Source: Burkholderiales bacterium (GTDB taxonomy: Bacteria > Pseudomonadota > Gammaproteobacteria > Burkholderiales > SG8-41). From it: a stretch of 64,000 nucleotides of DNA. The stretch lies in NCBI GenBank assembly GCA_022841375.1, contig JALHRQ010000003.1, forward strand, positions 40,692-104,691. The letters are read 5' to 3'. Position 1 is the first letter of the stretch; the number at the start of each line of letters is the position of its first letter. Position numbers and translations under genes: made by a program. Below are positions 11,735-52,786 of the stretch, one piece after another. The notes beneath the pieces were generated by a model. That model was given only the letters and a program-made list of their open reading frames with translations, searched no databases and had not been told where the DNA came from.

Positions 11735-11738
11735 GCGG

Positions 11739-12647: not shown

Positions 12648-12668
12648 GGCGTTCTCTCAGTTCAGTGA

Positions 12669-14690: not shown

Positions 14691-14705
14691 AAAGTCAAAG
14701 GCATT

Positions 14706-16218: not shown

Positions 16219-16361
16219 CGGGATGCGGAGATGCGGCAGGTCATGCGGATTGCCAGTGTGGAAAGCGGAGGGCGCAGTTTAGCGTAACTCGCAGGGTGCG
16301 TGCTATTCTGGCCGCGGCTCGCAAGCGCGGGCGCAAAACAGCCGGATTCCGGGGAGAAAAC

Positions 16362-23908: not shown

Positions 23909-25285
23909 TTACTTGGTGCCCCAGGGCTTGATGGCAGCTTTGAGCTGGTTGTAACCGTCGATGTAGCGCGGGCGTTTGCTGCTGTAGATCTTGTCGAACG
24001 TAGCCAATTGATCGTCCAGCCACTTGGCCAGTTCGGTGTTACCCGGATTGGCGGCTTTGTAGGCTTCGTTGATCAGCACGAAGTGAATGCGCGGATCGTA
24101 CGGATCCTTGGTGCCGCCAACGGTTTCGTCGCCGTTGAGCAGGCGCTGCAGCATCGCATCGGCGGAGCCAAGGGTCTGCTCGAAAATTGGCGCGCCCTCC
24201 ATGCGGTACATCACGCTGGTCATGTCCTTGCCGTTGGTCATGGTGAAGCCCATGTCCTTCCACACGTCGCCCATCTTCTTGCCGGTTTTGGCGTAGTCGA
24301 GAATGATCTGGCCCCACTTGCGCAGCACGTCCGGTGCGTCGGCCATCAGGTCGGTCAGGCGGTCACCGTCAAGGTCGGTCGAGTAGATGATGCATTCGCG
24401 CTGTTCGATCATGTCGTGCAGCATCAGACCGAAGTTGGTGTCGGAGATGTGCTCGTAGATGTCGCCGCCCCAGTTTTCCATGCCCGCCTTGAAGTCTTTC
24501 GGCAGCAGCGCGACGATGGCGTGAACGTTATCCTTGTGTTCTTCGTAGGCGTCAACCGCGTATTGGCGCTTCAGCTGGAATTTGGTGCCCTGGATCATCC
24601 AGCGGAACAAACCGGCGTTTACTGCGTCTTCTTTCGCCTGGGTCGGCTTGGTGGCGACGCGGCCGATGCAGCCTCGGTCATTGACCAGCTTCAGGAACAG
24701 CCGTGCGGCATAGGCCATGCGCACGCCGGGGGTGTTCATTTCGGAATGGATGTTGCCGGTGGCTTTTTCAACGACGAATTTCTTGTTGTCCTGCGAGTAG
24801 GGCAGGCCGGGCATGAAACGCACGTTGGTGATTGAGCCGTAGGGGCGGACGTTGCAGTAGACGCCGGCTGCAGTGCGCAGCGGGGCATTGGCTGACTTGC
24901 CGGCGACAACCACTTTCTTGCCACCGTCATTGACCATGAAGTCGCCCGCGGTCGACCATTTCAGGCAGGTGAAATCCATCTTGCCGAACCACTCCAGCGA
25001 CTTGAGCTTCGTATCGTGGCGGAACTGGGCCATCATCGGTACGCCGAGGAAGGGCAGGCCAAGTACGTCGAGTGCCATGATGGTGCCGTTGAGCGCGAAG
25101 GTGTCGGTGAGCGCATGTGCTACCGGATTGACGCCGCCGGTGAAGTTACCGCCTTCCCAGATGGTGGCGTCGCTGATGCCGCGCGGCTGGGTTTTGGAGC
25201 GCTTGAATACGCCGTCCAGATATTTGAAAAGATCACCGCTTGCTTCTTCCTGCGCGATTTTCAGCAGGTCCAGTTTTCCGCTCAT
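23909..25285 (-). CDS. Conserved-looking hypothetical protein, 458 aa, family not recognised
   Basis: Clean long ORF (MSGKLDLLKIAQEEASGDLFKYLDGVFKRS...). GGAGAATTAAGAA precedes the ATG; it has its own terminator, no signal peptide and no motif I can name. Confidence 0.8.
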   Translation of the reverse strand: MSGKLDLLKIAQEEASGDLFKYLDGVFKRSKTQPRGISDATIWEGGNFTGGVNPVAHALTDTFALNGTIMALDVLGLPFLGVPMMAQFRHDTKLKSLEWFGKMDFTCLKWSTAGDFMVNDGGKKVVVAGKSANAPLRTAAGVYCNVRPYGSITNVRFMPGLPYSQDNKKFVVEKATGNIHSEMNTPGVRMAYAARLFLKLVNDRGCIGRVATKPTQAKEDAVNAGLFRWMIQGTKFQLKRQYAVDAYEEHKDNVHAIVALLPKDFKAGMENWGGDIYEHISDTNFGLMLHDMIEQRECIIYSTDLDGDRLTDLMADAPDVLRKWGQIILDYAKTGKKMGDVWKDMGFTMTNGKDMTSVMYRMEGAPIFEQTLGSADAMLQRLLNGDETVGGTKDPYDPRIHFVLINEAYKAANPGNTELAKWLDDQLATFDKIYSSKRPRYIDGYNQLKAAIKPWGTK

Positions 25286-25484
25286 TTCTTAATTCTCCGT
25301 TCGAATTGGGTCGTTCAAGTGATCGGCGGGTAGTCGCGATCAAAGGGGTGCTCCGGAGGCAAGGTTCTCTCCGAAGCGGTGACCACCGTGCCTGTGACAG
25401 ATTGCCTGCTGGTCAGGGGGCGGATTATCTCATTATTTCCCGCGCCCGGCATGGTTTGCCGCTGTTATGAGTCGGCAAAAGGGC

Positions 25485-29127: not shown

Positions 29128-30399
29128 ATGACAATTTCCAGACGCGAATTCATGAAATGGGCTTCGGCGGGTGCCGGAATGGCAACGCTGGCCGGTTGCG
29201 TAACGGGAGGCAGCGGCAGTGCCGGACGCGTGGTGGTAGTGGGTGGCGGTTATGGCGGCGCTACGGCGGCTAAATTCGTCAAGATGTGGGCGCCGGATAT
29301 CGATGTCACGCTGATCGAAACCAACGATTATTTCGTGTCATGCCCGATCAGCAATCTGGTACTCGGCGGCAATGCGCGAATGAACCAGATCACATTCAGT
29401 TATGACGGGCTGCGCAACCGCGGCATCCGCGTGCTGAAGGATAACGCCATCGCGATGGACGGCGTCAACAAACAGGTCACGCTGGCCAGCGGCGGCTCCG
29501 TGCCCTATGACCGGGTCATCGTGTCGCCGGGCGTCGATTTCATGTACGAACAGATTCCCGGCCTGAATACCGCGGACGCGCAGAGCCGCATCCTGCATGC
29601 GTGGAAGGCCGGACCGCAGACCGTGGCTTTGCGTAAGCAACTCGAATCGATGCGCGACGGCGGCATCTATGCGCTGCAGATCCCGATGGCGCCGTACCGC
29701 TGCCCGCCGGGACCGTATGAACGCGTGTGCCAGGTCGCCGACTACCTCAAGAAATCCAAGCCGAAATCGAAGATCCTGGTGCTGGATGCAAATCCCGATC
29801 TGGTATCGAAAAAGGGATTGTTCCTTGCCGCCTGGAATGACATGTACAAGGGCATGATCGAATACCGGCCAAACAGTGAAATCGCCGATGTCGACGTCAA
29901 GGGCATGACCGTCAAGCTGCAGTTCGAAGACGTCAAGGCCGATGTCATCAACGTCGTGCCGGCGCAGCGCGCCGCCGATTTTGCCGTCAGGAGCGGGCTG
30001 ATCACCGCCAACAACCGCTGGTGCGGTGTTGACTGGACGACCTGCGAATCAACCGCGGTGAAAGGCGTGCATGTACTCGGCGATGCCACGCTGTCGGCAA
30101 CGGCGATGCCGAAATCCGGCAGCATGGCCAATCAGCACGCCAAGATCTGTGCAGCCGCCGTGGTGGCGTTGATCAAGGGCCAGCCGGTGAACACCGACAC
30201 CATGATGATGAACACCTGTTACAGCTTTGTCAGCGGCGACAGTGCGATGCATGTGGCCTCGGTGCATCGTTACGATCCCGCGCAGAAGACGCTGGTGCCG
30301 GTCAAGGGCAGCGGCGGCGTTTCAAGCGAAGCGAGCACGGCCGAAGGCGCTTATGCCTGGGGCTGGGCACGCAACATCTGGGCTGAAGCACTGGCCTGA
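29128..30399 (+). CDS. fccB: Flavocytochrome c sulfide dehydrogenase flavoprotein subunit
   Basis: Tat signal MTISRREFMKWASAGAGMATLAGC, VVVVGGGYGGATAAK FAD motif, FCSD-type C-terminus. Confidence 0.88.
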   Translation: MTISRREFMKWASAGAGMATLAGCVTGGSGSAGRVVVVGGGYGGATAAKFVKMWAPDIDVTLIETNDYFVSCPISNLVLGGNARMNQITFSYDGLRNRGIRVLKDNAIAMDGVNKQVTLASGGSVPYDRVIVSPGVDFMYEQIPGLNTADAQSRILHAWKAGPQTVALRKQLESMRDGGIYALQIPMAPYRCPPGPYERVCQVADYLKKSKPKSKILVLDANPDLVSKKGLFLAAWNDMYKGMIEYRPNSEIADVDVKGMTVKLQFEDVKADVINVVPAQRAADFAVRSGLITANNRWCGVDWTTCESTAVKGVHVLGDATLSATAMPKSGSMANQHAKICAAAVVALIKGQPVNTDTMMMNTCYSFVSGDSAMHVASVHRYDPAQKTLVPVKGSGGVSSEASTAEGAYAWGWARNIWAEALA

Positions 30400-30899: not shown

Positions 30900-31748
30900 T
30901 CAAGCGCCGGTGGCTACAGGCCGGCGGCGGTCGCTGACCCATTCACTCCAGGAACCCGGATACAGTCGTGAGCCCTTGAGTCCGGCAACTTCCATCGCCA
31001 GCAGATTATGGCAGGCCGTCACGCCGGATCCGCACTGGTGGATTACCGATTCAGGGCCGTGGCCGTTCAGCATGCCGGCGAATTCCTGTTTCAGTGCGGC
31101 TGCGGGTTTGAAGCGGCCGTCCTCACCGAGATTGAGTTTGAAAAAACGGTTGATCGCGCCCGGGATGTGTCCGGCGACCGGATCCAGCGTTTCGTTTTCA
31201 CCGCGATAACGGTCCGGCGCGCGTGCGTCGACGACCTGCTCCTTGCGGGCTTGCAGATTGGCCGTGACCAGTGCGCTGTCGACGGCGAGTTGTGATTGCA
31301 CACGGCCGCTGTAAGTCGCCGGTTCGATGGCCGGTTGCGCGACGGTGAACGGCAATCCGGCACGTTGCCATGCGCCCCAGCCGCCGTCGAGCACGGCGAC
31401 GCGGTCGTGGCCCACCCAGCGCAGCATCCACCACATGCGTGAGGCAAAAGCGCCGCCGCTGTCGTCATACGCAACAACCTGCTTGGTATTGTCGATGCCC
31501 AGCGCGCCCAGACGCAGGGAGAACGTTGCCGGATGCGGCAGCGGATGACGGCCGGTCAATCCGGTCTTCGGGCCTGACAGATCGGAATCGATATGCAGAA
31601 ACCGCGCGCCCGGAACATGCCCGCTGCGGTACGCGCGATAACCGGCGCTGTAGTCGGCGAGATCATGCCGGCAGTCGCAGATGATCCACTCCGGATCGTT
31701 CAGATGCGCTGCGGTTTCTTCAGCACTGACGAGCGTCTTGTGGGCCAT
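30900..31748 (-). CDS. sseA: Sulfurtransferase (tandem rhodanese, SseA/3-mercaptopyruvate-type)
   Basis: Two rhodanese domains; active-site loop HQCGSGVTACHN. Confidence 0.88.
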   Translation of the reverse strand: MAHKTLVSAEETAAHLNDPEWIICDCRHDLADYSAGYRAYRSGHVPGARFLHIDSDLSGPKTGLTGRHPLPHPATFSLRLGALGIDNTKQVVAYDDSGGAFASRMWWMLRWVGHDRVAVLDGGWGAWQRAGLPFTVAQPAIEPATYSGRVQSQLAVDSALVTANLQARKEQVVDARAPDRYRGENETLDPVAGHIPGAINRFFKLNLGEDGRFKPAAALKQEFAGMLNGHGPESVIHQCGSGVTACHNLLAMEVAGLKGSRLYPGSWSEWVSDRRRPVATGA

Positions 31749-31877: not shown

Positions 31878-32987
31878 TTATTTTATGAGTTGAGGCTCGA
31901 CTTCACGCCGCAGGAACTCGTGGAAATGCACCATGCCGTCTTCCAGCGGCGTCTGGTAGGGCCCGACTTCGCTGCGGCCCTGCTGCCACAGCGCACGGCG
32001 GCCTTCGGTCATGCGCGCGATGATTTCAGCGTCCTCAACCGCGGTCTCGCGGTAGGCCGCCTGTTCTGCTTCGACGAATTCGCGTTCGAACAGCGCGATG
32101 TCTTCGGGGTAATAAAACTCGACGACGTTGCTGCACGCTTCGGGGCCGCGCGGCACCACGGTGCTGACCACCAGCACGTGCGGATACCACTCGACCATGA
32201 TGTTCGGAAAGTATGTCAGCCAGATCGCACCGTGCGCCGGCGCTTTGCCTTTGCCATAACGCAGCACCTGATCGTGCCAGCGCTGGTAGACGGCGCTGCC
32301 GGGGCGCGCGAGCTGGTTGGCGATGCCGCAGGTCTGCACGCTGTACCAGTCTCCGAACTCCCATCGGAGGTCGTTGACGTTGACGAAGTGGCCGAGTCCC
32401 GGATGGAACGGTTCGACGTGGTAGTCCTCGAGATAAACCTCGATGAAGGTTTTCCAGTTGCAGGCGTATTCATCGATCTCGACGCGGTCGAGCATGAAGC
32501 CGGAAAAGTCGAGATTCTTCATCACCCCGAGTTTCGCCAGATCGTGCGCGATGTCGCGGCGGCCGGCGAACAGCAGGCCGTTCCAGTTGGTCAGCGGCGT
32601 ACGCGCGAGGTCGAGGCAGGGGTTGTCTTTGAAATGCGGTGCACCGAGCAGTTTGCCGTCGAGGCCGTAGGTCCAGCGGTGCAACGGGCAGATGATGTTT
32701 TGCGTATTGCCGCGATCTTTGAGGATGATCGCCTGACGGTGGCGGCAGATGTTGGAGATCAGGCCGACGTCGCTGGCGTTGCGCACCAGCGCCTGCGCGT
32801 TGTCGAGCCAGGCCAGCGCGTGATAGTCGCCGGCGTTCGGCACCATCAGTTCGTGGCCGACATAGCCGGGACCATTGTCGAACAGCAGGCGTTTTTCGAC
32901 CGCATGGATATGCGGATCGAAATACCACTGTACAGGAAGTTGTGTGGAGGTCTTGCCGAAGGCGGTAACGCTGGAGAGATCAGACAT
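31878..32987 (-). CDS. Rieske (2Fe-2S) aromatic ring-hydroxylating oxygenase alpha subunit-like
   Basis: CRHRQAIILKDRGNTQNIICPLHRWTY Rieske motif; EDYHVEPFHPG mononuclear-iron region. Confidence 0.85.
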   Translation of the reverse strand: MSDLSSVTAFGKTSTQLPVQWYFDPHIHAVEKRLLFDNGPGYVGHELMVPNAGDYHALAWLDNAQALVRNASDVGLISNICRHRQAIILKDRGNTQNIICPLHRWTYGLDGKLLGAPHFKDNPCLDLARTPLTNWNGLLFAGRRDIAHDLAKLGVMKNLDFSGFMLDRVEIDEYACNWKTFIEVYLEDYHVEPFHPGLGHFVNVNDLRWEFGDWYSVQTCGIANQLARPGSAVYQRWHDQVLRYGKGKAPAHGAIWLTYFPNIMVEWYPHVLVVSTVVPRGPEACSNVVEFYYPEDIALFEREFVEAEQAAYRETAVEDAEIIARMTEGRRALWQQGRSEVGPYQTPLEDGMVHFHEFLRREVEPQLIK

Positions 32988-33144
32988 GCAGCAGGCGGAA
33001 AAGTTACGGATTAGTCGGCCTTCGTCGGCGATTCAAGGGCCTGATTCTAAAAGTTTTTTGGCGCTGTTTCTGGAGCAACGAAGCGGCGGCAAAAATGAGG
33101 GGCTATTCTTTCCCAGCCCCCCCCAAAAGGCAACAACAATTTCC

Positions 33145-33930
33145 TCAGGGTCTTGCGGCCGGGTCCGCAGGACGTAATGTAAGGTTATGTTTATTAAATG
33201 AAATACCACCGAAATGCGCGGTTGCGAAAGTCCCGGTGTTATCCGTGTCGGTGGCCACTGCAATGGCCCTGACTGTTGGCGCCTCCTCGCCGAAAGCCGC
33301 GCGGAAATCGCGCGCGATGTTGCGTTCGACATCAACCCATTGTTTTACGCGCGCACTGCCGGACTCGACAACGATCACTTTCACACGGCCGGTATAAGCG
33401 CTGGACGCAATGGTTCCCGCCGGCGCCTTGCCGTCCCACACGTAACACAGCGTAGCCGCCGGCAGCTGCGAATCGAATAGGACCCGTGCCAGCCGCAACT
33501 TGTTACGTTCATAAAACGGCAGTTTCTCCAGCGGGTAATCGAACATGACATAGAGGCGCGCAGGAAAATCATCCCCGGCCTTGCTGCGCAGGTCGGCGGC
33601 CTCTATGAGATTGCTGATGTTCCACCGCCAGCGCAGCCACGGCAGATCACCGGGATCGACACGCAAGGACCGCGACAGGCCCGAGGCGCCCGATTGCGAT
33701 TCCGCGCGCAGCACGGTGATGCCGTTGTCATCGACCAGGCTGTAGCGCGTGTGCCCCTTGATGTTTGCAGCGGCCAGCGGCGTCCATCCCGCAGGCAGGG
33801 AGGTGCCGGGTCGTGCCGCAGAGAACGCGCCCGCAAGCAGCTGGTCCTCGACCGCCCACGCTGCCGCAGCGAACAGCAGTGTGCCCATCGCCAATACCGC
33901 CCATGCCTGGTCAGTCCGTCGACGGCGCAT
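33145..33930 (-). CDS. DUF3047 domain-containing secreted protein
   Basis: Signal peptide, then ...YSLVDDNGITVLRAESQSGASGL...LRWRWNISN...ARLYVMFDY..., as recalled for DUF3047. Confidence 0.75.
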   Translation of the reverse strand: MRRRRTDQAWAVLAMGTLLFAAAAWAVEDQLLAGAFSAARPGTSLPAGWTPLAAANIKGHTRYSLVDDNGITVLRAESQSGASGLSRSLRVDPGDLPWLRWRWNISNLIEAADLRSKAGDDFPARLYVMFDYPLEKLPFYERNKLRLARVLFDSQLPAATLCYVWDGKAPAGTIASSAYTGRVKVIVVESGSARVKQWVDVERNIARDFRAAFGEEAPTVRAIAVATDTDNTGTFATAHFGGISFNKHNLTLRPADPAARP

Positions 33931-34558
33931 CGTTGAGCAACCCGGATTGCTGCAGGCGTTGCCAGTCTTGCGGACGATCGACGTCCCACAAATATTCGAG
34001 TTCCTGCCAGCGGAGCCCGCATGATCGCAGCTGTTCGCGCGTCTGCTGCATCACGCGTTCGCTGCCCCAGTCGATGCCGGAGAACAGGCGCGGCTCGTGG
34101 CGCGACAGGCCGATCAACGTGTAACCGCCGTCTTCCGCCGGGATGAATACACCGTCATTGCCGTTGCGCAACGCCGCAGCCGCTTGATGCAGGTGTTTCA
34201 CGCTCAGCGCCGGGCAGTCGGTGCCGATGAGCAGGACTTTGGGCGTGTCACGCAGCGCCTGCTCAAAGGCATGCGCCAGGCGGAGGCCGAGATCGGCGCC
34301 CTGTTGCGCATGCAGCGTCGCGCGGTGTAATTGTGAAGCCTTGATCAGTGCGGGGTGTGCGGTGTCGGGCGCACACCACAGTTGCAGATGAGCGGGGAAG
34401 GCCGCACGCGCCGTTGCCAGCGCATGATGCAGCAACCGGTTCTGCAGCGCGGCGGCGCGTTCTGAGCCGAGCAGCGGAATCAGCCGAGTTTTCGCCGCGC
34501 CGGGTACCGGTGCTTTGGCGAACACCAATATCGCCAGCTCAGGGTTTGTGCCGGACAT
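33911..34558 (-). CDS. DUF2064/TIGR04282-type transferase (rSAM/selenodomain-associated transferase 1; annotated elsewhere as an arsenosugar-biosynthesis glycosyltransferase)
   Basis: LAILVFAKAPVPGAAKTRLIPLLG...FIPAEDGGYTLIGL...IDWGSERV. Start at ATG 34558. Confidence 0.75.
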   Translation of the reverse strand: MSGTNPELAILVFAKAPVPGAAKTRLIPLLGSERAAALQNRLLHHALATARAAFPAHLQLWCAPDTAHPALIKASQLHRATLHAQQGADLGLRLAHAFEQALRDTPKVLLIGTDCPALSVKHLHQAAAALRNGNDGVFIPAEDGGYTLIGLSRHEPRLFSGIDWGSERVMQQTREQLRSCGLRWQELEYLWDVDRPQDWQRLQQSGLLNDAPSTD

Positions 34559-35225
34559 ATTGCTGCGCAAGCTGGTTGGGGTCTGCGCCGAAAAAATAGG
34601 CGAGCCGCAATCGCCACATCAGCAGCATCGTTCGCCATACACCGTGTTTTTCCCAGCGCCGGCCCGAGGTCGTCAGCCGGTGGGCGATGCGCAGTGGTGG
34701 ACTGTAACGCTTTAACTGCCGCGTCAGCGCGATGTCTTCCATCAGCGCAATTTCCGGAAAATGGCCAGCCGCTTCGAACAGCGAGCGGGTCAGGAACAAA
34801 CCCTGGTCGCCGGTGGCGATGCCGGTCAGCCGCGAACGCCAGTTCATCAGCTGTGCGATCACGCGAAGCATCGGGTGCGTGCCGGCAATCGACACATCGA
34901 AACGTCCCCAGCTGCGCCGGCTGCGGGAGAGCCCATCGACGATCAGGCCGTCGGCACCCTCCGGCAGGCGCGAATCCGCATGCAGAAAGCAGAAAATTTC
35001 ACCCTGCGCTGCCGCGGCGCCGGCATTCATCTGTCGCGCGCGGCCCCGCGGCGCGGTCAGCACTTGATCAGCGCGCTCGCGGGCAAGTTTTGCGGTGTCG
35101 TCGCTGCTGCCACCGTCGGCGACGATGATTTCGACGCCGCGCCGGCGCAGCGGCTGCAGACTGTCGAGCGTGGCCGCAATGTGTTCCGCTTCGTTAAGCG
35201 CGGGAATGATGATGGACAGTGACAA
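34539..35225 (-). CDS. Family-2 glycosyltransferase, TIGR04283-type (rSAM/selenodomain-associated transferase 2)
   Basis: MSLSIIIPALNEAEHIAATLDSLQPL...IIVADGGSSDDT...FLHADS. Confidence 0.78.
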   Translation of the reverse strand: MSLSIIIPALNEAEHIAATLDSLQPLRRRGVEIIVADGGSSDDTAKLARERADQVLTAPRGRARQMNAGAAAAQGEIFCFLHADSRLPEGADGLIVDGLSRSRRSWGRFDVSIAGTHPMLRVIAQLMNWRSRLTGIATGDQGLFLTRSLFEAAGHFPEIALMEDIALTRQLKRYSPPLRIAHRLTTSGRRWEKHGVWRTMLLMWRLRLAYFFGADPNQLAQQYVRHKP

Positions 35226-35273
35226 ATCGGAACCGGGTGATGGAGCCAGGGAAGCGGAAAAAGGAAGCGAAAG

Positions 35274-36104
35274 CTATTTCTTAACGTCGTTCAGCGTCCA
35301 ATCATAATCCAGATGCCGGATCGCGGCCTTGCGCTCGGCAATGGCCTGCTGCTGGGCCGGTGCGTCGGCGAGCAAGGCTGCGTATTTTGCAAAAAACTGC
35401 TCGCGCGACTGTATCGGCGTGCTTTTGCCGTCAAAGCCGCGGTAGCCGCTGGTCCAGTCGGTGCTGAACCATTTGAAGATTTCAGAAACTTCCAGCGCAT
35501 TGTCCTGTGCGCTGTAGCGGTTTCGGCTGCGGTCGGACAGAAAACGCTTCGTTTGCTCTTCCAGTTGCGCCTCGAGACGCAAGGTGACATAGGGTTCCTC
35601 GCGCAACATCGGGCAGCCGACAGAGGCGCAGTTCACCGCGAAATGCACCCGCGGATCATCGTAGGTGCCGGGCTTGCGCAGGGTTTCATGCTCGATCATG
35701 TCGAGCGAGAATTCGCGGCCGAGCAGTGTGAAGAATTTGTCCTTGAACGGGTTGCCGAAGACTTTTCCGAAATCCCAGATCGATTTGATGTTCGGATAGC
35801 GGGTGAGGATTTTTTCGACGGTATACGCGTTGTAGGCGTTGATCAGGAACGCCATTTGCTGGGGTTTGCTCCAGGCGTTGAATTCGGCCTGGGTCACTTT
35901 GGAGAGTGTGCCAAGGTAGGCTTTGAGTTCGTTGCGGTCCTGGGCGAAGCCGGCATAGCGCACTTGCGAGGATTTGCTGTTGTCGATGAGCAAGACATGT
36001 TTTTTCAGCAACGTGGCCCACGGTTTGTGATCGTGGTCAAAGGATTGGGCGGTGGCGGTCAGCGGGATGGCTGCTAACAGCAGGGCAAGTAAGAGTTTTT
36101 TCAT
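35274..36104 (-). CDS. DUF547 domain-containing secreted protein
   Basis: Signal peptide MKKLLLALLLAAIPLTATA; ...AFLINAYNAYTVEKIL...HFAVNCASVGCP... is typical of DUF547. Confidence 0.8.
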   Translation of the reverse strand: MKKLLLALLLAAIPLTATAQSFDHDHKPWATLLKKHVLLIDNSKSSQVRYAGFAQDRNELKAYLGTLSKVTQAEFNAWSKPQQMAFLINAYNAYTVEKILTRYPNIKSIWDFGKVFGNPFKDKFFTLLGREFSLDMIEHETLRKPGTYDDPRVHFAVNCASVGCPMLREEPYVTLRLEAQLEEQTKRFLSDRSRNRYSAQDNALEVSEIFKWFSTDWTSGYRGFDGKSTPIQSREQFFAKYAALLADAPAQQQAIAERKAAIRHLDYDWTLNDVKK

Positions 36105-36324
36105 GAGATCAATTAAACAGCGTGGAGTGTGAGGTTTTTGTGGTCATGGCAAGTGCGGTGCTCGAGGTCGCCTGGCGGCTAGTTACCTGCTCTTGCTACG
36201 CCCAGTGAAAGTAATCAAAGAGAAGGAAAACCTCCTCGCCGCCCTTCGGGTTCCCTGCGCTGCTTGGCGGCTCACAGCAGGGAACTTCACAACCGTTGGT
36301 CGAGTTAAGTTTTGCGGTTAAGAG

Positions 36325-38457
36325 TCAACCTCGTCGCCAGGCATGAAACTTATCCACCCACTCCAGTAACCCTTTAGGCGCGTGATTGCGTTTCCAGTTC
36401 CCGGCAACGTATTTATTGGCTTCTGAGAGTGTCGGGTAAATGTGGATGGTGCCGAGGATCTTGTTGAGGCCGATGCCGTGTTTCATCGCGCTGACGAATT
36501 CGGTAATCAGCTCCCCGGCGTGTTCGCCGGCGATGGTAGCGCCTAGGACTTTGTCTTTGCCGGGTACGGTCAGCACCTTGACCAGGCCATGCGCACTGCC
36601 GTCGGCGATGGCGCGGTCGAGATCGTCGATGCCGTAGGTGGTGATCTCGTACGGGATATTCTTTTCTTTCGCCTCGGTTTCATTGAGGCCGACGCGCGCC
36701 ACTTCGGGGTCGGTGAAAGTGGCCCACGGGATCACCGAAAAGTCAGCGCGGAATTTTTTGTAGCCGCCGAACAGGCCGTTGACCGCGGCATACCAGGCGG
36801 TGTGCGCTGCCGTATGCGTGAACTGGTAAGGCCCGGCGACATCGCCGCAGGCGAGGATATTGGGGTATTTGGTCTGCATGAAATCGTTGACTTCAACCGT
36901 GCGCGCCTTTGTTACTGGAATGTGGAGTTCTTCCAGGCCGTAGCCGGTGGTATTGGCGACGCGGCCAACGGCACAGAGCAGGGTGTCAAACACGATGCGC
37001 ACGCTGTCACCGTTGTGTTCGCAATACAGCACCTTCTCGCCATTCTCGGTCGCGAAACGCTGGGCCTTGTGGTTCACCAGGACGTTGATGCCTTCGCTGC
37101 GGAATTTCTGCTGAACCAGATCGGATATTTCCGGATCCTCGCGCACCATGATCCGCGGCAGCATTTCCACCTGAGTCACCTGCGCACCCAGGCGGGCGAA
37201 ACATTGCGTAAGTTCGCAGCCGATCGGGCCGCCGCCGAGCACCACCAGGCGTTTCGGCAACTGGCGCTGATCCCAAAGAGTATCGGAGGTCAGATAACCC
37301 GTTTCTTCGATACCGGGAATCGGTGGTACGAACGGGCGGGCACCGGCGGCGATGATGATGCCGCGCGTGGTCAGTGTCTGCTTGCCGGTGGCGGTGGTGA
37401 TTTCAACTGCCCACGGGGATACGATTTTTGCTTCACCGGTCAGGCATTCGACGCCGAGTTTGGTGTAACGCTCGATCGAATCATGCGGCTCGATTTCGCG
37501 AACCACCCGCTGCACGCGATCCATCACGTCGGAAAAATCGAAATCGACGGTTGCGCTTTTGAAGCCATAGTCACTCGCGTGTTTCATCGTCGCCAGCAGT
37601 TTGGCCGACTTGATCAGCGCTTTTGACGGCACGCAACCGGTGTTCAGACAGTCGCCGCCCATTTTGTGTTTTTCGACCAGCGTCACTTTGGCTTTCACGG
37701 CCGCTGCGATGTAAGCGGAAACCAGACCGGCGGAGCCGCCGCCAATGACCACCAGGTTGCGGTCGAAGGTGGCGGGGCGGGTCCAGCCGGCGTAGACCTT
37801 GCGCGCCTTCAGCGCATCAAGAGTTCTTTTGGCCAGCAGCGGGAATATGCCGAGCAAGGCAAATGCGATCAGCAGACCCGCCGAGATTTTGAATGCGCCG
37901 AGTTGTGTGCCGGCATAAACATAGACCAGGGTGCCCGCAAACATGCCCAGCTGACTGACCCAGTAGTAGGTCCAGGTACGGATGGCCGTAAGGCCCATTA
38001 CAAGATTAATCACGAAAAACGGGAAAGCGGGCACCAGGCGCAGTGCGAACAGATAGAACGCCCCTTCGCGCGCAATGCCTTCATTGATCGGACGCAAGCG
38101 GTCGCCGAAACGTTGTTGCACCCAGTCGCGCAGCAGAAAGCGCGAGGCGAGGAAGGCCAGCGTGGCGCCCATCGTCGACGCAAACGACACGATTACCGTG
38201 CCCAACAGCAGACCGAACAATGCGCCGGCAATGAGGGTCATGATCGCCGCGCCGGGCAGCGACAGTCCGGTCACGGCGACGTAAGCGCCGAAAAACAGCA
38301 GCGCGGTGCGCAAGGGGTGGGCCTGGACCTGGGCCTCGATGGCGGCGCGCTGCGACTGGAAATAATCCAGTGATACGTATTGCTTCAGGTCAAAGATAAA
38401 AAATGCAGTGATGGCTGCTGCGATCACTGCAAGCACCAGTAGTTTGCTTTTGCTCAA
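36325..38457 (-). CDS. Fusion of a TVP38/TMEM64 (DedA-like) membrane domain with a class-I pyridine nucleotide-disulfide oxidoreductase (mercuric reductase/dihydrolipoamide dehydrogenase-like)
   Basis: The N-terminal ~230 aa are polytopic, then LVVIGGGSAGLVSAYIAA...GGDCLNTGCVPSK redox disulfide. TTG start with GGAGAA 5 nt upstream; 4-nt overlap with the upstream stop. Confidence 0.85.
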   Translation of the reverse strand: MSKSKLLVLAVIAAAITAFFIFDLKQYVSLDYFQSQRAAIEAQVQAHPLRTALLFFGAYVAVTGLSLPGAAIMTLIAGALFGLLLGTVIVSFASTMGATLAFLASRFLLRDWVQQRFGDRLRPINEGIAREGAFYLFALRLVPAFPFFVINLVMGLTAIRTWTYYWVSQLGMFAGTLVYVYAGTQLGAFKISAGLLIAFALLGIFPLLAKRTLDALKARKVYAGWTRPATFDRNLVVIGGGSAGLVSAYIAAAVKAKVTLVEKHKMGGDCLNTGCVPSKALIKSAKLLATMKHASDYGFKSATVDFDFSDVMDRVQRVVREIEPHDSIERYTKLGVECLTGEAKIVSPWAVEITTATGKQTLTTRGIIIAAGARPFVPPIPGIEETGYLTSDTLWDQRQLPKRLVVLGGGPIGCELTQCFARLGAQVTQVEMLPRIMVREDPEISDLVQQKFRSEGINVLVNHKAQRFATENGEKVLYCEHNGDSVRIVFDTLLCAVGRVANTTGYGLEELHIPVTKARTVEVNDFMQTKYPNILACGDVAGPYQFTHTAAHTAWYAAVNGLFGGYKKFRADFSVIPWATFTDPEVARVGLNETEAKEKNIPYEITTYGIDDLDRAIADGSAHGLVKVLTVPGKDKVLGATIAGEHAGELITEFVSAMKHGIGLNKILGTIHIYPTLSEANKYVAGNWKRNHAPKGLLEWVDKFHAWRRG

Positions 38458-39446
38458 GATCGTTCTCCGGCTGCGCGTACCTGCTGCAGCAGCGTGTGGC
38501 TGATGCGGATGCCCCGACCCATTGCGCGGTTGAGGCCGTAACGCGGCCCGTTGGCAATGCGTTTGCCATAAGACAGTTCAGCCGCGCTGCCTGCGGGCCA
38601 TTGGTCCGCAAATTCGTTTTGCCACGCGACGGGATCGTAGTGCACCGCCAACGCGTCAATAAACACGCCGTCGATGGTCGTGCCATAGAGCGCTGCCGGC
38701 GTGGTTGCGGCACAGGTGGAAATGCGGGTGATCACGCCGAAGGACGTACCGGCGAAGTTGGGCATGCCCGCGGCGCCGTTGTTGAACAGTGCCGCGGTGC
38801 CGATCGCGGTATCCAGCGTCAATGCAAGCGGCAGGCAGGTATGGCTGCATGAGATGATGCGTGCGTTTGCAGCTGCGAGGTGCGCCACGACCCGCTCGTG
38901 GCCGGTGGCATCGCGAAGTGCGGATTCGTCATAAGTCCATCCGGCCAGCGATTCGCAGTCGCCGTGAACGATGGCGATACGCAAACCGCCGACGGTTACC
39001 GACAGCGTCATCGGCAGTGCCGCTAGGCGTTCGCGCAATTCGGGAAATTTCCGCGCCGTTTCGCGCAGCCGTGCCGCGATGGCGTTGGAGCGTTCAACTT
39101 CAGCGTCGCTGACACTGTCTGGGTAGCCGCAACCGCAGCCGGACGCATCGTCATCATTGGCCAGTTCGGTTTCGACGTTGCCGCGTATTGCACGATGGCC
39201 GAGCACCGCCTCATTGATGGCCGTAAAACCGGCGGCGTCAATATTGAACCAGTTGAAATCGCCATTAAATACTTGTGTCACCGGCCCTGGCTCGGCGGCG
39301 GCCAGTTCACGTAACGCGCGCAATGCGGGTTGGTTGCCGTAAAGCCCGCCGATGACATACAGCGTGTCAGCGCTGAAATCCGCTGCGCGGTTCAGCGATT
39401 TCGCGGCATAACGGTAGTGCAGCGGGCAGTTGCGACCGGGATTCAT
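38454..39446 (-). CDS. Hypothetical protein, degenerate metallophosphoesterase-like
   Basis: ...VFNGDFNWFN...IRGNVE...IVHGD...SCSHTC... resemble calcineurin-like motifs II-V, but no DxH motif I is seen. ATG 39446 overlaps the upstream stop (ATGA). Confidence 0.55.
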   Translation of the reverse strand: MNPGRNCPLHYRYAAKSLNRAADFSADTLYVIGGLYGNQPALRALRELAAAEPGPVTQVFNGDFNWFNIDAAGFTAINEAVLGHRAIRGNVETELANDDDASGCGCGYPDSVSDAEVERSNAIAARLRETARKFPELRERLAALPMTLSVTVGGLRIAIVHGDCESLAGWTYDESALRDATGHERVVAHLAAANARIISCSHTCLPLALTLDTAIGTAALFNNGAAGMPNFAGTSFGVITRISTCAATTPAALYGTTIDGVFIDALAVHYDPVAWQNEFADQWPAGSAAELSYGKRIANGPRYGLNRAMGRGIRISHTLLQQVRAAGERS

Positions 39447-40828
39447 CGTGGGCTGCGCAGTTTCTGCCACGCGATGGGCAGCAGGAATCCGGCGATGCAC
39501 AGGCCGAGCCCGTAAAAATTGACCCCTAGCAGCAGTGCGTATTTGCCGTCGCCGATGGCCCACGACGGCGGGATCATGCTGGCCGCCAACAGCACGCCGA
39601 GGATTACCCCCGGCCAGAACGCCAAATGGAAGCTCCACGGTGAGTGTTTGACCAGCGGTGCAAGCAGAAATACCGGCGCCAGACCCATCACCATCGTGCC
39701 GCTGACGGTGGTGGCTTTGAGAATGTCAGTGCCGGCAATCATCGGGATGTTGCCGAGCAGCGCGAATACGATCATCGTCCACATGCCCACAACCATCGCC
39801 CGCGGTCCCGGTTTGTGGCCGGCGAGCATCGGCACTTCCTGACCGATGGATTTGGCGACGGAAGCAAATGTCGAGTCCAGCGTTGAACCTGCAGCCATGA
39901 TCATCACTACGGTCATCAGCAGGTAGGGCAATGTGCCGAAAGCCAATGCCACTGCGCCGGGCATGTTGTCACCCGAGGGCAGGCCTTCCAGCTTTGCGTG
40001 TACGCCGACCAGGCTGAACGCAAAAATGCATATGAAACCGAGCACACCGGCGATGATCATCGCGCGCAGCATGGTTTTTTCACGGGTGATGAAGCCGCGG
40101 TCGGTGAGTACCGGATCATGGAAGGGGTAGGACAGCACTTGCAGCAAAGCGACCAGAATCAGGTCTACGCCGGCATTCATGCGGAAGTCGCCGACGGAAA
40201 GCAGCGTGCCCAGACCGTGATGCGGCAACACGAGGAACAGCACGGCACCGAGGGCGACGATAAACAGGATGGTCTGGATGACGTCAGTGACGATGGAACT
40301 GCGCAGGCCGCCTTTGAGGGCATAAATCAGCGTAGCCGCGGTGAACAGCAGGGCTGCGGTGATGAAGGTCCATTCTCCAGCCTGGCCGTAATAGGCGCCG
40401 ACCACGGCGGTATTGCTCCACACTTCGTTATAAAGCCGGATCAGGATTGCGAGCGTGAATGCGAGCGCAGCGAGCCTGCCGTAACGCGTGATCAGAAACG
40501 GCACCAGTCCGGTGGCGCCATGGCGCGTGCGCAGCCAGTAGATCACGATGCCGGCGACCGGAATCGACAGCCAGTAGGTTGCATAGGCCAGACCGCCGAC
40601 CACGCCCCAGGCGGCGCCGAGATTGGCCGCGTTGGTCACCGACTTGGCGAAAATCCAGCTGATGAAAATGCTGCACATCAGCGCCCACTCGGTGGCCGGA
40701 CGCCCCGCATCGTCGCTGCCGGTGAAAAAGCTGGCGGCAGTGCGCGAGCGCGGCGTGATCGCATACATCGCGCCGCCATAAAGCAGCAGGAAGCCCCAGA
40801 AATAGATGGCGAAAGCCGGTTCGATCAT
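39443..40828 (-). CDS. Sodium:solute symporter (SSS) family-like transporter
   Basis: About 12 predicted TM helices; ...FFTGSDDAGRPATEWALMCSIFISWIFAKSVTNAANLG... The start is uncertain (ATG 40828 preferred; 40915 would overlap arsS by about 70 nt). Confidence 0.65.
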   Translation of the reverse strand: MIEPAFAIYFWGFLLLYGGAMYAITPRSRTAASFFTGSDDAGRPATEWALMCSIFISWIFAKSVTNAANLGAAWGVVGGLAYATYWLSIPVAGIVIYWLRTRHGATGLVPFLITRYGRLAALAFTLAILIRLYNEVWSNTAVVGAYYGQAGEWTFITAALLFTAATLIYALKGGLRSSIVTDVIQTILFIVALGAVLFLVLPHHGLGTLLSVGDFRMNAGVDLILVALLQVLSYPFHDPVLTDRGFITREKTMLRAMIIAGVLGFICIFAFSLVGVHAKLEGLPSGDNMPGAVALAFGTLPYLLMTVVMIMAAGSTLDSTFASVAKSIGQEVPMLAGHKPGPRAMVVGMWTMIVFALLGNIPMIAGTDILKATTVSGTMVMGLAPVFLLAPLVKHSPWSFHLAFWPGVILGVLLAASMIPPSWAIGDGKYALLLGVNFYGLGLCIAGFLLPIAWQKLRSPR

Positions 40829-40844
40829 TGTCGGGTGGTCGAGT

Positions 40845-41810
40845 TCAGTCCGCCAGCGCGCCGCCGCAGCTCGAACCCTGCCCGGCGGTGCAGCCGTAAC
40901 AGTGGTCCTTGACAACGATCGGATTGCGCTCGAGGTTGGCGCCGATCAGCTCGCGCAGGTGGGTGCAAGTGCGGCCTTTCCACGCCAGCGGCAGTTCCAG
41001 CATCTGGTTGAAATCGCAGTCGTAGACATAACCCTGCCAGTCCACCGACAGCAGCGTCCGGCACATCACGGTGTCGAGATTTTCGGGTCGGTAGGCCGCT
41101 TTCAGCAGTTTCATGTACGGATCAAACTGTCCCTTGGAGACCAGCGTACTGCCGAAACGCTGGATCGGCATGTTCGCCAATGCATATAGATCGTTGAATA
41201 CAATGCCGTAGCCATCGAGCAGTCGTTGCTGGTACTCGCGCTGCAGGTTCTGCTGGTCCGGGGGCAATACAGGCCCCTGCGGGTTATAGACCAGGTTCAG
41301 CTTCAGTGGTGAACCGGGTTGCGCATAACCGAGGCTGTTGAGTTTCTGCAGCGCACGGATGCTGGTATCGAACACGCCCTTGCCGCGCTGCCGGTCAACG
41401 TTATCTTCAAGGTAGCAGGGCAGGGAAGCGGTGACTTCAACCTGTTGGTCAGCGAGGAACTGCGCCAAGTCCTCATGGCCCGGCTCGAACAGTATGGTCA
41501 GATTGCAACGATCAATGACCCGAACACCCAGTCCGCGCGCCGATTTGACGAGCATGCGGAAGTGCGGGTTGAGTTCCGGTGCGCCACCGGTGACGTCCAG
41601 CATACGGATGCCCATGGCTTTCAGGCAGGCGATGACTTCGAAAATGGTCTCGCGCGACATCAGTTCGGTGCGCGTCGGCCCTGCGTTGACGTGGCAGTGC
41701 AGGCAGCTCTGGTTGCACCGATAGCCCAGATTGACCTGCAGGGTTTCCACCGCCTTGCGACGGATGGCCGGGAAATCGCCGTTTTCCAGCAACGGCAGCG
41801 TGGCATGCAT
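40845..41810 (-). CDS. arsS: Radical SAM/Cys-rich domain protein, ArsS/TIGR04167-type (Cys form)
   Basis: GYRCNQSCLHCHVNAGP (CX3CX2C); C-terminal ...WQGYVYDCDFNQML...HCYGCTAGQGSSCGGALAD, the motif in which some homologues carry Sec (recalled). Confidence 0.82.
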   Translation of the reverse strand: MHATLPLLENGDFPAIRRKAVETLQVNLGYRCNQSCLHCHVNAGPTRTELMSRETIFEVIACLKAMGIRMLDVTGGAPELNPHFRMLVKSARGLGVRVIDRCNLTILFEPGHEDLAQFLADQQVEVTASLPCYLEDNVDRQRGKGVFDTSIRALQKLNSLGYAQPGSPLKLNLVYNPQGPVLPPDQQNLQREYQQRLLDGYGIVFNDLYALANMPIQRFGSTLVSKGQFDPYMKLLKAAYRPENLDTVMCRTLLSVDWQGYVYDCDFNQMLELPLAWKGRTCTHLRELIGANLERNPIVVKDHCYGCTAGQGSSCGGALAD

Positions 41811-41996
41811 CAGTGAATGCTCCGTATAACGCGGGTTATTCCGTGCCCATCGGTCGTGCCCGGGGGGCGATTCCTTACGCTGTTCATTGTACGCAATCGA
41901 CAGTTTATTCCGCCGGGGATTATCCAGGCTTGCGCGTTGACCGCAACCCTCTGATTGCGCTACATTTCCTGACCTTTCCCCGGGTCACGTACCCTC

Positions 41997-50461: not shown

Positions 50462-51817
50462 TTATGCCGGCAGCAGCGTCCACGCCGCGCCCACCAGCGC
50501 GCAGGCACCGATCACCGGCATGATGCCGATCTTGTAACGCCACAGCGCGAGGAACGCAGCGATGCCGATCACCGCCGACGGCCAGTCGAAGCGGCCTGTC
50601 ATGCCCTCCGGCCACAACACGTGGTAGGCGAAAAACACTGCGAGATTGAGGATGACACCGACCACCGCCGCGGTGATGCCGGTCAGCGGCGCGGTGAAAT
50701 GCAGTTCGCCATGCGTGGTTTCGACCAGCGGGCCGCCGAGCAGGATGAAAATGAAACTCGGCAGGAAAGTGAAGTAGGTGACCACCGTGGCGGCGAGTGC
50801 GGCAGCGGCGAGCACATGATCGGGGCCGAGGAACTGCGTGGTCCAGCCGCCGACGAACGCGACGAAAGCGACGACCATGATCAGCGGGCCCGGTGTGGTT
50901 TCGCCGAGGGCGAGGCCGTCGATCATCTGCAGCGGAGTGACCCACTGGTAGTGTTCGACTGCGGCCTGATAGACGTAGGGCAGTACCGCATAAGCGCCGC
51001 CGAAGGTCAGCAGCGCGGCCTTGGTGAAGAACCAACCCATCTGCGCCAGCGTGCTGTCCCAGCCGAACACCGCGATGATCAGCGCCATGCCGGAGCCCCA
51101 CAGCAGCAGTCCGGCGGCGAGCACCTTGGCGAAATGCGGCCAGCAGAAGCGCGCGTGCTCCGGTGTCGGTGTTTCGTCGTCGATGACCGCCGGGCCGTAA
51201 CTCTTGCCGCCGGCGCCGTGACCGCCGCCGGTGGCGAACAGCTGGGGTGCGACGCGGCCGCCGATCCAGCCAATGATGCCGGCGCCGATGACAATCAGCG
51301 GGAATGGCAGCTTCAGCGCAAACAGGGCCACGAAGGCCGCGGCCGCGATGCCCCACAGCACGCCGTTTTTTAATGCCCGCGAGCCGATGCGGATCGCCGC
51401 GAAGACCACGATCGCGGTGACTGCGGGCTTGATGCCATAGAGGATGCCGGCAATCGCCGGGATGTCGCCGAAGGCGAGATAAATCCACGACAGTGCAATC
51501 AGGATGAACAGCGAGGGCAGCACAAACAGGCCGCCGGCGACAATGCCGCCCCAGGTGCGGTGCATCAGCCAGCCGATGTAGGTGGCGAGCTGCTGCGCTT
51601 CCGGTCCCGGCAGCACCATGCAGTAGTTCAGGGCGTGCAGAAAGCGGCGCTCGGAGATCCAGCGTTTCCGCTCGACCAGTTCCTGATGCATGATTGCGAT
51701 CTGCCCGGCGGGACCGCCGAAGCTGATGAAGCCGAGCTTGAGCCAGAAACGGAAGGCGTCGGCGAACGGAATGGCGGCGGGTGCTTCGGTCGGTACGGCG
51801 GTGTTTTTATCAGTCAT
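50462..51817 (-). CDS. chrA: Chromate ion transporter ChrA
   Basis: Duplicated CHR domains; ...LGFISFGGPAGQIAIMHQELVERKRWISERRFLHALNYCMVLPGPEA... Confidence 0.9.
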   Translation of the reverse strand: MTDKNTAVPTEAPAAIPFADAFRFWLKLGFISFGGPAGQIAIMHQELVERKRWISERRFLHALNYCMVLPGPEAQQLATYIGWLMHRTWGGIVAGGLFVLPSLFILIALSWIYLAFGDIPAIAGILYGIKPAVTAIVVFAAIRIGSRALKNGVLWGIAAAAFVALFALKLPFPLIVIGAGIIGWIGGRVAPQLFATGGGHGAGGKSYGPAVIDDETPTPEHARFCWPHFAKVLAAGLLLWGSGMALIIAVFGWDSTLAQMGWFFTKAALLTFGGAYAVLPYVYQAAVEHYQWVTPLQMIDGLALGETTPGPLIMVVAFVAFVGGWTTQFLGPDHVLAAAALAATVVTYFTFLPSFIFILLGGPLVETTHGELHFTAPLTGITAAVVGVILNLAVFFAYHVLWPEGMTGRFDWPSAVIGIAAFLALWRYKIGIMPVIGACALVGAAWTLLPA

Positions 51818-51834
51818 GGATTTGTTGTTGCCGT

Positions 51835-52644: not shown

Positions 52645-52786
52645 ACAGTCTCCTTCGCGGTGGCGAAATCACACGAAGGCAGCACTTGGACGCGAGGCGT
52701 CTGGGTGCGGGGAGTCTGCCATCGTCCCCGTTTGAGGCGGTCTGATTCTGCTCGGCAGTACCGGCGCTGTCAACACAGCGCCGCGG

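Follow-up and report, generated by a model that had tools for sequence, protein, structure and literature searches.

The 64,000-nt stretch analysed here (the window; positions 40,692 to 104,691 of contig JALHRQ010000003.1, assembly GCA_022841375.1, from a Burkholderiales bacterium) carries on its minus strand, at 33145–41810, eight consecutive genes headed by arsS, which codes for a radical SAM protein. We consider it slightly more probable than not, with a probability of roughly 0.55, that these genes constitute a single operon for an organoarsenical 5′-deoxyriboside of the arsenosugar type, in which the methyltransferase ArsM is replaced by a membrane transporter and a cysteine-rich, degenerate metallophosphoesterase-like (MPE-like) protein. 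The core of the cluster, ArsS/TIGR04283/TIGR04282, already carries the NCBI name arsenosugar biosynthesis and the cluster is thus of a known kind, being less mysterious than proposed in a first-pass annotation of the same DNA.

The ArsS product matches TIGR04167 over its full length (model positions 2–303 of 303), contains the Pfam domains PF04055 (Radical_SAM, 46.6 bits) and PF12345 (DUF3641, 185 bits), and has the CxxxCxxC motif as CNQSCLHC at residues 32–39 (C32/C36/C39). At the C-terminus, GSSC corresponds to the GxxU site in its Cys form, with cysteine where selenoprotein members have selenocysteine (Sec), and Sec forms are indeed documented in the family (PMC13188914). ArsS is a full-length member of the sole characterised family that adds the 5′-deoxyadenosyl radical to trivalent arsenic. 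In this reaction, known only for the Synechocystis enzyme, the 5′-deoxyadenosyl radical of S-adenosylmethionine and dimethylarsenite, DMAs(III), yield 5′-deoxy-5′-dimethylarsinoyladenosine (PMC13598754), and arsS of Synechocystis is co-transcribed with arsM (bioRxiv 10.1101/2022.09.23.509062).

Homologs of each window gene and of ArsM were located in a set of loci anchored on a diverse ArsS alignment, which comprises 80 species-representative loci, all from Proteobacteria, with ArsS 61–83 % identical. ORFs (open reading frames) in the fetched loci were called heuristically; co-occurrence was calculated for the 61 loci that extend 6 kb or more downstream, and the association statistics ignore phylogeny, apart from inspection of the ArsS tree. 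The trio formed by ArsS, TIGR04282 and TIGR04283, whose members all score above their cutoffs in the window (Table 1), is co-localised in 43 of the 61 loci. The family 2 glycosyltransferase (GT2) occurs in 46 of them and is nearly inseparable from the DUF2064 gene (odds ratio 57, p = 1e-7). The second NCBIfam match of the DUF2064 product is CofC, it matches PDB entry 3cgx with E = 6e-23, and in the metagenomic locus L090, described below, it is fused to an APH-family kinase. The literature searched yielded no experimental paper on a role of GT2 or DUF2064 in arsenosugar formation. GT2 could possibly transfer sugars to polyprenyl phosphate, with the DedA domain of the cluster acting as the flippase; we did not adopt this idea, the similarities found being only weak, N-terminal ones of the GT-A type.

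No homologs of ArsM, of 5′-methylthioadenosine phosphorylase (MTAP) or of TIGR03169 were found in the window at E ≤ 1e-3 (tblastn, with eight probes for ArsM), and no ars family appeared among its ca. 45 large ORFs, small ORFs such as arsR not having been searched exhaustively. The first-pass annotation had reported this lack of arsM and other ars genes, correctly, and had concluded from it that the element handled by the cluster is open; the second step is not supported. The lack of a linked arsM in the window is the usual state of ArsS loci, because 63 of the 80 proteobacterial loci do not contain ArsM within 10 kb, ArsM being linked in the other 17, and 46 of the 80 have neither ArsM nor the MPE-like gene nearby.

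The genes that accompany ArsS in the window are also found beside ArsM. Locus L003, syntenic with the window through a common ribBA-folE-dxs-ispA flank, has the order ArsS-ArsM-VTT/FAD (75 % identical)-GT2-DUF2064, and its ArsM reaches 549 bits with NF038099, the arsenosugar ArsM model (cutoff 400); in L004, the same position is occupied by ArsS-VTT/FAD-GT2-DUF2064-Rieske-rhodanese. ArsM occurs together with VTT/FAD, GT2 and DUF2064 in L010, L049, L053, L064 and L077, some of them with DUF3047 or DUF547, and the cultured Cupriavidus sp. KK10 (NZ_CP073678.1) has ArsM-ArsS-FAD-VTT-GT2-DUF2064-MTAP, followed at some distance by DUF547. The neighbouring ArsM candidates retain the arsenic-binding cysteines of SNCV(I/L)NL and CxxGA, and several of these methyltransferases score best on the AST-type ArsM model. 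Fusions of ArsS and ArsM, in both orders, appeared among representatives of the ArsS family at 50 % identity.

Locus L090 (ODXQ01001177.1, 63–11934), a low-GC metagenomic operon, contains genes for a DUF2064::APH-kinase fusion, two VTT proteins, GT2, DUF6037, an Fe-S/CCG protein and ArsS, followed by a C_GCAxxG_C_C protein, an SSS-like transporter, the MPE-like protein, a MIP aquaglyceroporin, an ArsM resembling AS3MT, and a rhodanese. The channels classically known to pass arsenite are aquaglyceroporins. In a neighbour-joining tree the ArsS of MPE-type and ArsM-type loci interleave, and no residues separating both types were found in the alignment (best score 0.5). Arsenic is therefore the best-supported element for the cluster of the window, because of the ArsM-linked accessory genes, the synteny with L003, the content of L090, the ArsS::ArsM fusions and the interleaved ArsS sequences.

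The gene for the MPE-like protein is a near-obligate neighbour or fusion partner of ArsS. In a metagenome scan anchored on it (80 diverse loci, 39–69 % identical to the fusion-protein query and 34–56 % to the window protein), ArsS was situated within 3 kb in 21 of the 23 loci with enough flank, and within 4 kb in 22 of them; MPE-like::ArsS fusions are present in P0294, P0324 and L084–L087. Alone or after the transporter gene, the MPE-like gene fills the slot directly after ArsS, which elsewhere is that of ArsM. ArsM was found in 0 of 17 MPE-positive versus 17 of 63 MPE-negative loci from the GTDB set and, once long MPE-anchored contigs were added, in 1 of 38 versus 17 of 63 (Fisher p = 0.002). 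About nine separate branches of the ArsS tree contain the MPE type, either newly arisen or retained there, and its cluster is carried by 48 Burkholderia plasmids, from which ArsM is absent, and by one Azonexus plasmid.

Locus L082 (ENA ERZ15610165 NODE_8429, 1645–10067) contains three adjacent ArsS paralogs, one fused as ArsM::ArsS (683 aa), one free (323 aa) and one fused as MPE-like::ArsS (688 aa). This arrangement suggests that the MPE-like protein and ArsM may be parallel inputs to ArsS rather than successive steps. We had considered a strict mutual exclusivity of the two, which was rejected after both were found in L082 and L090; there is a strong depletion, not a rule. L082 further encodes another ArsM-like methyltransferase besides the fused one, a GTPase of the CobW type and a CMD/AhpD-like protein. 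CMD/AhpD-like domains, another thiol-redox companion of ArsS, recur beside it in several loci, L158 and L082 among them, and are fused to its C-terminus in P0313 (598 aa); they are not found in the window cluster.

The MPE-like protein did not match any Pfam or NCBIfam family at E ≤ 1e-3, and a profile of its family gave no match among PDB sequences at E ≤ 10. However, its AlphaFold2 model (predicted local distance difference test, pLDDT, 90.7; predicted template modelling score 0.91) was matched by Foldseek to the metallophosphoesterases 1nnw, 3qfm and 3rqz, with E values from 1.6e-10 to 1e-9 and target TM-scores of 0.70–0.75. The predicted structure thus has the alpha/beta sandwich fold of calcineurin-like metallophosphoesterases. 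The first-pass description of a degenerate metallophosphoesterase is in this way supported by the fold, and not by hidden Markov models (HMMs) or sequence profiles. The expected motifs are altered to GGLYGN (for GDxHGN; the DxH of motif I is G34-L-Y36), NGDFNWFN (for GDxxDR), GNVE (for GNH(D/E)) and SHTC (for GHTH), alongside VHGD. Across 90 sequences one metal site is kept, with D63, N90, H161 and H202 invariant, and the other has lost three of its four ligands by replacement, as well as the catalytic histidine. Cysteines C7, C104, C106 and C204 are likewise invariant, and C204 occupies the exact site of a former metal-binding histidine. This pattern is direct evidence, at the level of sequence, for a repurposed, thiolate-rich active site beside a retained oxyanion or metal site. 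The family is large (5004 proteins at E ≤ 1e-5 among the candidates tested), with no Pfam domain among the matches listed, and includes a protein, P0121, 100 % identical to that of the window.

The remaining products extend beyond the published two-enzyme ArsM/ArsS model, as the first-pass annotation had stressed for the transport, redox and secreted components. The 461-aa membrane protein would best be named SSS-like: it falls below threshold with the Pfam SSF model (19.4 bits versus 22.8) and with TIGR00813 (33.5 versus 184), its best match to a solved structure being SGLT1 (E = 1e-5, residues 13–207); the SSS family named in the first-pass annotation is consequently retained only as a distant relationship. 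Copies with 49–67 % identity adjoin the MPE-like gene and ArsS in GTDB loci and likewise in 20 of the 82 loci anchored on the MPE-like family, some of which belong to low-GC lineages (SSS–MPE association, odds ratio 26, p = 0.0009).

The flavoprotein domain of the VTT–FAD fusion possesses a CLNTGC redox centre and is a class-I disulfide reductase outside the named equivalogs, since it remains below the cutoffs for MerA (366 of 454 bits), Lpd (397 of 409) and GR (286 of 480) and its C-terminus (…FHAWRRG) does not have the MerA-type Cys pair. Fused or adjacent VTT and FAD genes are found in 38 of the 61 loci. The DUF547 gene occurs in 12 of them, and stands beside ArsM in L049 and in Cupriavidus KK10. 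The DUF3047 gene is associated with the MPE-like gene (odds ratio 10, p = 0.0007); in L053 it comes after the cluster and immediately precedes ArsM. Positive associations were obtained for MPE–VTT/FAD, MPE–DUF3047 and VTT/FAD–DUF3047. No solved relatives of DUF547 or DUF3047 were found by sequence, and the predicted structure of DUF3047 (pLDDT 56.8) was too poor for fold use. Together, the VTT-DedA/disulfide reductase and the secreted DUF547 and DUF3047 proteins point to a putative membrane, periplasmic or redox stage.

Other genes recur at the borders of ArsS clusters. TIGR03169, an ‘N-terminal-to-SelD’ pyridine-nucleotide disulfide oxidoreductase (437 bits, cutoff 310), is repeatedly the last gene of the cluster, coming after DUF2064 or DUF3047, both in GTDB loci (L026, L031, L032, L042, L046, L056, L062 and L077) and in metagenomes (L106, L114, L116, L138, L144, L146, L151, L152 and L158). 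MTAP (TIGR01694, 320 bits, cutoff 275) is encoded next to ArsS in eight of the GTDB loci, and also in Cupriavidus and on the Burkholderia plasmids. Plasmids NZ_CP035902.1 from B. glumae 257sh-1 (L164) and NZ_CP013412.1 from B. thailandensis 2002721643 (L165) carry an MPE-type ArsS cluster adjoining a Tn3-family transposase, with genes for MTAP, TIGR04282/04283, a TVP38–FAD fusion, extracytoplasmic function (ECF) sigma and anti-sigma factors, CcdA and thioredoxin, an N1pC/P60 hydrolase, a second radical SAM protein and DUF547.

The eight ORFs are situated where the first-pass annotation had placed them, co-directional and tightly packed, and the HMM matches agree with its assignments for ArsS, GT2 (TIGR04283), DUF2064 (TIGR04282), DUF547, DUF3047 and the TVP38–flavoprotein. 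The SSS-like and MPE-like genes overlap by 4 nt, as do the MPE-like and VTT–FAD genes, and GT2, DUF2064 and DUF3047 overlap too. The cluster is divergent from xseB-ispA-dxs-folE-ribBA, and a promoter scan did not identify a consensus sigma-70 promoter upstream of arsS on the minus strand; ECF sigma factors border the ArsS cluster in other lineages. A terminator-like hairpin is situated 23 nt past the DUF3047 stop codon, with overall terminator counts not being above those of shuffled sequences. Rfam identified no RNA families within the cluster.

The only break of 220 nt in the otherwise overlapping or abutting genes separates VTT–FAD from DUF547 (93 nt in the relative L001). It contains a first hairpin (GTTCCCTGC...GCAGGGAAC) and a second one (GAGGAGG...CCTTCTC) followed by a T-run; no second copy of this element was found elsewhere in the 64-kb window. 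An internal attenuator is one possibility for this gap, an inserted element another.

Table 1. Features of the arsS cluster and its boundaries, in the direction of transcription (positions in the window).
Feature	Coordinates	Strand	Basis or remarks
Upstream intergenic region, presumed promoter	41811..41994	-	ca. 185 nt, from arsS to the divergent xseB-ispA-dxs
ArsS, radical SAM / DUF3641, Cys form	40845..41810	-	TIGR04167, 460.3 bits (cutoff 300)
Distant SSS/LeuT-fold-like membrane transporter, ca. 461 aa	39443..40828	-	Sub-threshold SSF/TIGR00813; SGLT1 match
MPE-like, 330-aa Cys-rich protein, predicted degenerate metallophosphoesterase fold	38454..39446	-	Fold match
VTT/DedA (TVP38) + class-I pyridine-nucleotide disulfide oxidoreductase fusion, 710 aa	36325..38457	-	PF09335 + PF07992 + PF00070 + PF02852
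Intergenic gap of 220 nt with two hairpins	36105..36324	-	Possible internal attenuator, terminator or promoter
Secreted DUF547 protein	35274..36104	-	PF04784, 92 bits; signal-peptide-like N-terminus MKKLLLALLLAAIPLTATAQ
GT2 glycosyltransferase, TIGR04283	34539..35225	-	283 bits (cutoff 182)
DUF2064 / TIGR04282, CofC/MobA-like nucleotidyltransferase fold	33911..34570	-	207 bits (cutoff 134)
Secreted DUF3047 protein	33145..33930	-	PF11249, 240 bits; signal-peptide-like N-terminus ending in AWA
Terminator-like hairpin, end of operon	33097..33122	-	9-pair stem (6 G-C), then ATTTTTG

The arrangement of the eight genes is not due to chance, because close relatives (Burkholderiales metagenome-assembled genomes with ArsS 83–93 % identical) have the same genes in the same order and sub-modules of the cluster recur in 160 further loci. 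The complete order is restricted to the close relatives L001 and L002. The co-conservation of these families expected in the first-pass annotation is found across ArsS loci at the level of sub-modules.

Beyond the operon, the window contains a Rieske/ring-hydroxylating oxygenase alpha subunit gene (31878–32987, minus strand), a 3-mercaptopyruvate sulfurtransferase-like rhodanese (30900–31748, minus) and a flavocytochrome-c sulfide dehydrogenase-like gene (29128–30399, plus), whose synteny is limited to the closest relatives, L002 and L004, and whose presence suggests a sulfur-oxidising host. The Rieske gene, noted in the first-pass annotation as following on the same strand, does so, and is probably a separate unit, because the terminator-like hairpin intervenes; the rhodanese is probably separate as well. 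Membership of both in the cluster was rejected, given their location past this hairpin and their recurrence only in the syntenic L002 and L004. The Sec machinery attributed to the host is likewise in the window, as a complete minus-strand Sec-decoding set (11021–16278) made up of tRNA-Sec (Rfam, 75.9 bits), a thioredoxin-reductase-like gene (11739–12656), selB (12669–14726) and selA (14812–16278); no tie was found between this set and the cluster, from which it is separated by 17–30 kb. A chromate resistance pair is also present on the minus strand (chrB, 51835–52668, and chrA, 50462–51841), and chrB is preceded by a chrB-b RNA motif (52679–52730, minus strand, 55.5 bits versus a gathering score of 36.5). 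Finally, a 459-aa ORF with strong coding signal (23909–25288, minus strand; GC content at third codon positions, 0.80) has no Pfam family at E ≤ 1e-8.

In the pathway that we propose, the SSS-like transporter would import an arsenical, which the MPE-like protein may bind on its four invariant thiols, beside the retained metal or oxyanion site. The MPE-like protein would then pass a trivalent species to ArsS, serving either as its chaperone or, through its thiols, as the reductase of a pentavalent arsenical or methylarsenical, thereby filling the role held elsewhere by ArsM; we infer its As(III) binding, or its reduction of pentavalent arsenicals, from the conserved residues. ArsS would produce a 5′-deoxy-5′-arsenical adenosine, from which an MTA phosphorylase encoded elsewhere in the genome might strip the adenine, leaving a ribose-1-phosphate analog. 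This could be turned by the DUF2064 protein into a nucleotide sugar, and GT2 would move the activated sugar onto an acceptor. The VTT/DedA–disulfide reductase, DUF547 and DUF3047 would act at the membrane or in the periplasm, in the control of redox state, in translocation or in the final attachment.

A bolder version of this pathway can be put forward only tentatively, and we consider it doubtful. According to it, ArsS would not take any dimethylarsenite made by ArsM, and the MPE-like protein would be a hitherto unrecognised kind of handler of arsenic, or of another soft metalloid or chalcogen, a thiol-based reductase or chaperone on a phosphoesterase scaffold, feeding ArsS with the species imported by the SSS-like transporter, e.g., dimethylarsinate, arsenite or antimonite. 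The resulting 5′-deoxyribosyl metalloid conjugates would undergo activation and glycosyl transfer before reaching the cell envelope, and would form a class undescribed in heterotrophic bacteria.

Several observations weigh against the organoarsenical operon with a replaced ArsM. No ars genes were found in the 64 kb that the search covered, and the MTAP that the pathway calls for was not found in the window either. Both L090 and L082 possess an MPE-like protein together with ArsM, in the latter case each fused to its own ArsS paralog. The evidence for the role of the MPE-like protein consists of its position, its fusions and its cysteines; among the families of the cluster, experiments cover only the cyanobacterial ArsS, and VTT–FAD, DUF547 and DUF3047 are essentially without assigned roles. 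TIGR03169, of a family fused to SelD, ends many MPE-type clusters, and ArsS has Sec forms. Lastly, loci with the SSS-like gene outside this clade mostly do not contain GT2 or DUF2064, and the modules may thus serve separable functions.

The strongest competitor, to which we give a fairly low probability, is that an arsM located elsewhere supplies DMAs(III) to an ordinary arsenosugar pathway, with the MPE-like, SSS-like, VTT–FAD, DUF547 and DUF3047 proteins being involved in downstream tailoring, export or detoxification. It agrees with the 46 of 80 ArsS loci that have neither ArsM nor the MPE-like gene nearby, ArsM being often unlinked if present, with the joint presence of both in the L090 operon, and with the lack of residues separating the two types of ArsS; moreover, the TIGRFAM authors reportedly listed ‘a phosphoesterase’ as a member of the pathway in their description of TIGR04283. 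A downstream enzyme, however, should be equally needed in ArsM-type loci, from which the MPE-like gene is absent, and it is difficult to see in these terms why ArsM is depleted from MPE-positive loci (1/38 versus 17/63), or why the two share the slot after ArsS and are each also fused to it, in L082 to separate paralogs in an apparent parallel arrangement. The protein has also lost the phosphoesterase catalytic histidine and one metal site. Far less probable is the juxtaposition by chance of two or three independent modules, i.e., ArsS-SSS-MPE-like, VTT–FAD-DUF547 and GT2-DUF2064-DUF3047, despite the restriction of the eight-gene order to L001 and L002, the separate variation of the modules, seen in the SSS loci that mostly do not have GT2 and DUF2064, and the hairpin-bearing 220-nt gap that divides the cluster. 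Many independent lineages, however, have each of these modules next to ArsS, whichever of the two anchors is used, the stop and start codons overlap, there is a single terminator-like hairpin at the end, and the MPE–VTT/FAD, MPE–DUF3047 and VTT/FAD–DUF3047 associations are positive; we thus give this explanation the lowest standing of all.

It is also unlikely, although less so than a chance juxtaposition, that the MPE-type ArsS adenosylates Se, Te, Sb or S species to give a 5′-deoxyribosyl conjugate, the label ‘arsenosugar’ having been over-propagated; a conjugate of another metalloid or chalcogen was the possibility named in the first-pass annotation. SSS-family and DedA proteins have been tied to tellurite and selenite uptake, and the window itself could be read this way, with its Sec machinery, its rhodanese and flavocytochrome-c sulfide dehydrogenase neighbours and no ars genes found; the SelD-related TIGR03169 that follows many MPE-type clusters and the selenoprotein members of the ArsS family lead in the same direction. 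Against this, the same accessory genes, 55–75 % identical, accompany ArsM in relatives, the SSS-MPE-ArsS trio is found beside an aquaglyceroporin and ArsM in L090, and the two ArsS types interleave at 61–71 % identity with no discriminating positions. In addition, the sel genes, at a distance of over 17 kb, are of the ordinary kind that decodes Sec, and the rhodanese and Rieske genes represent lineage-specific synteny behind a terminator. On balance, we favour the organoarsenical operon in which the MPE-like protein and the transporter take the place of ArsM.

Arsenosugars and arsenolipids are the chief organic forms of arsenic in marine food webs. To our knowledge, the known biosynthetic enzymes of arsenosugars are only the first two, ArsM and ArsS, with the removal of adenine and the attachment of the aglycone having remained open for decades. 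The analysis offers a concrete set of genes for these steps, with MTAP or an APH-type kinase acting before DUF2064 and GT2. As an apparent alternative to ArsM, the MPE-like protein implies a second entry for arsenic, through salvaged environmental arsenicals or unmethylated arsenic. The pathway would be carried by non-photosynthetic soil and freshwater Proteobacteria, including cultured Burkholderia with their plasmids, which would widen the sources of complex organoarsenicals, and the cluster variants of cultured Burkholderia and Cupriavidus make it directly testable. The case also shows where the annotation ‘arsenosugar’, present on thousands of genomes, has independent backing and where it does not. 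The MPE-like family appears to be new, as do the almost constant linking or fusing of its members with ArsS, their scarcity in ArsM loci, the conserved SSS-MPE-ArsS trio and the genomic argument that MTAP or a kinase leads to DUF2064 and GT2, because no paper on these accessory genes or on the downstream case was found in the literature searched.

Among the closest known systems is the ‘rSAM/selenodomain-associated’ set of TIGRFAM/NCBIfam, now named arsenosugar biosynthesis, whose models TIGR04167, TIGR04282 and TIGR04283 are all matched here. Roles within that set have been assigned by computation alone, and no model or name ties to it the MPE-like, SSS-like, VTT–FAD, DUF547 and DUF3047 genes that the window adds. 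The arsenosugar genes arsM and arsS of Synechocystis sp. PCC 6803 were described by Xue et al. (2019), as cited in bioRxiv 10.1101/2022.09.23.509062. Like that ArsS, the protein of the window belongs to TIGR04167, with a radical SAM core and a DUF3641 Cys-rich domain, and presumably forms the same C5′–As bond. In contrast to Synechocystis, the window does not have an adjacent or fused arsM, the cluster contains six further genes that have not been described for the cyanobacterial system, and the host is a non-photosynthetic betaproteobacterium.

For the later steps, there is a parallel with MTAP/MtnK salvage and AmgK-MurU, in which a 5′-substituted 5′-deoxyadenosine is converted to a ribose-1-phosphate and an anomeric kinase and a nucleotidyltransferase produce a nucleoside diphosphate sugar, respectively. 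MTAP flanks ArsS in other loci and L090 joins DUF2064 and an APH-family kinase in one protein, but the cluster of the window does not contain MTAP or a kinase, and the substrates would be arsenical analogs. The MPE-like protein, in turn, recalls ArsC, with the fold of low-molecular-weight protein tyrosine phosphatases, and Acr2, with the Cdc25/rhodanese fold, which are phosphatase scaffolds turned into thiol-based handlers of arsenic oxyanions. As in these, it appears to keep an oxyanion or metal site while having lost phosphoesterase residues and gained invariant cysteines; unlike them, it has a predicted calcineurin-like metallophosphoesterase fold with no sequence relationship to either, and its arsenic role is a prediction.

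A last comparison is provided by the arsinothricin pathway, arsQML, in which the radical SAM protein ArsL acts on inorganic trivalent arsenic and ArsM acts afterwards (bioRxiv 10.1101/2024.02.01.577332). ArsL differs from ArsS in transferring a 3-amino-3-carboxypropyl group and in belonging to another radical SAM family, and neither ArsL nor ArsQ is found in the window. Nevertheless, the formation by ArsL of a C–As bond on inorganic As(III) is a precedent for an ArsS that would act with no prior methylation by ArsM.

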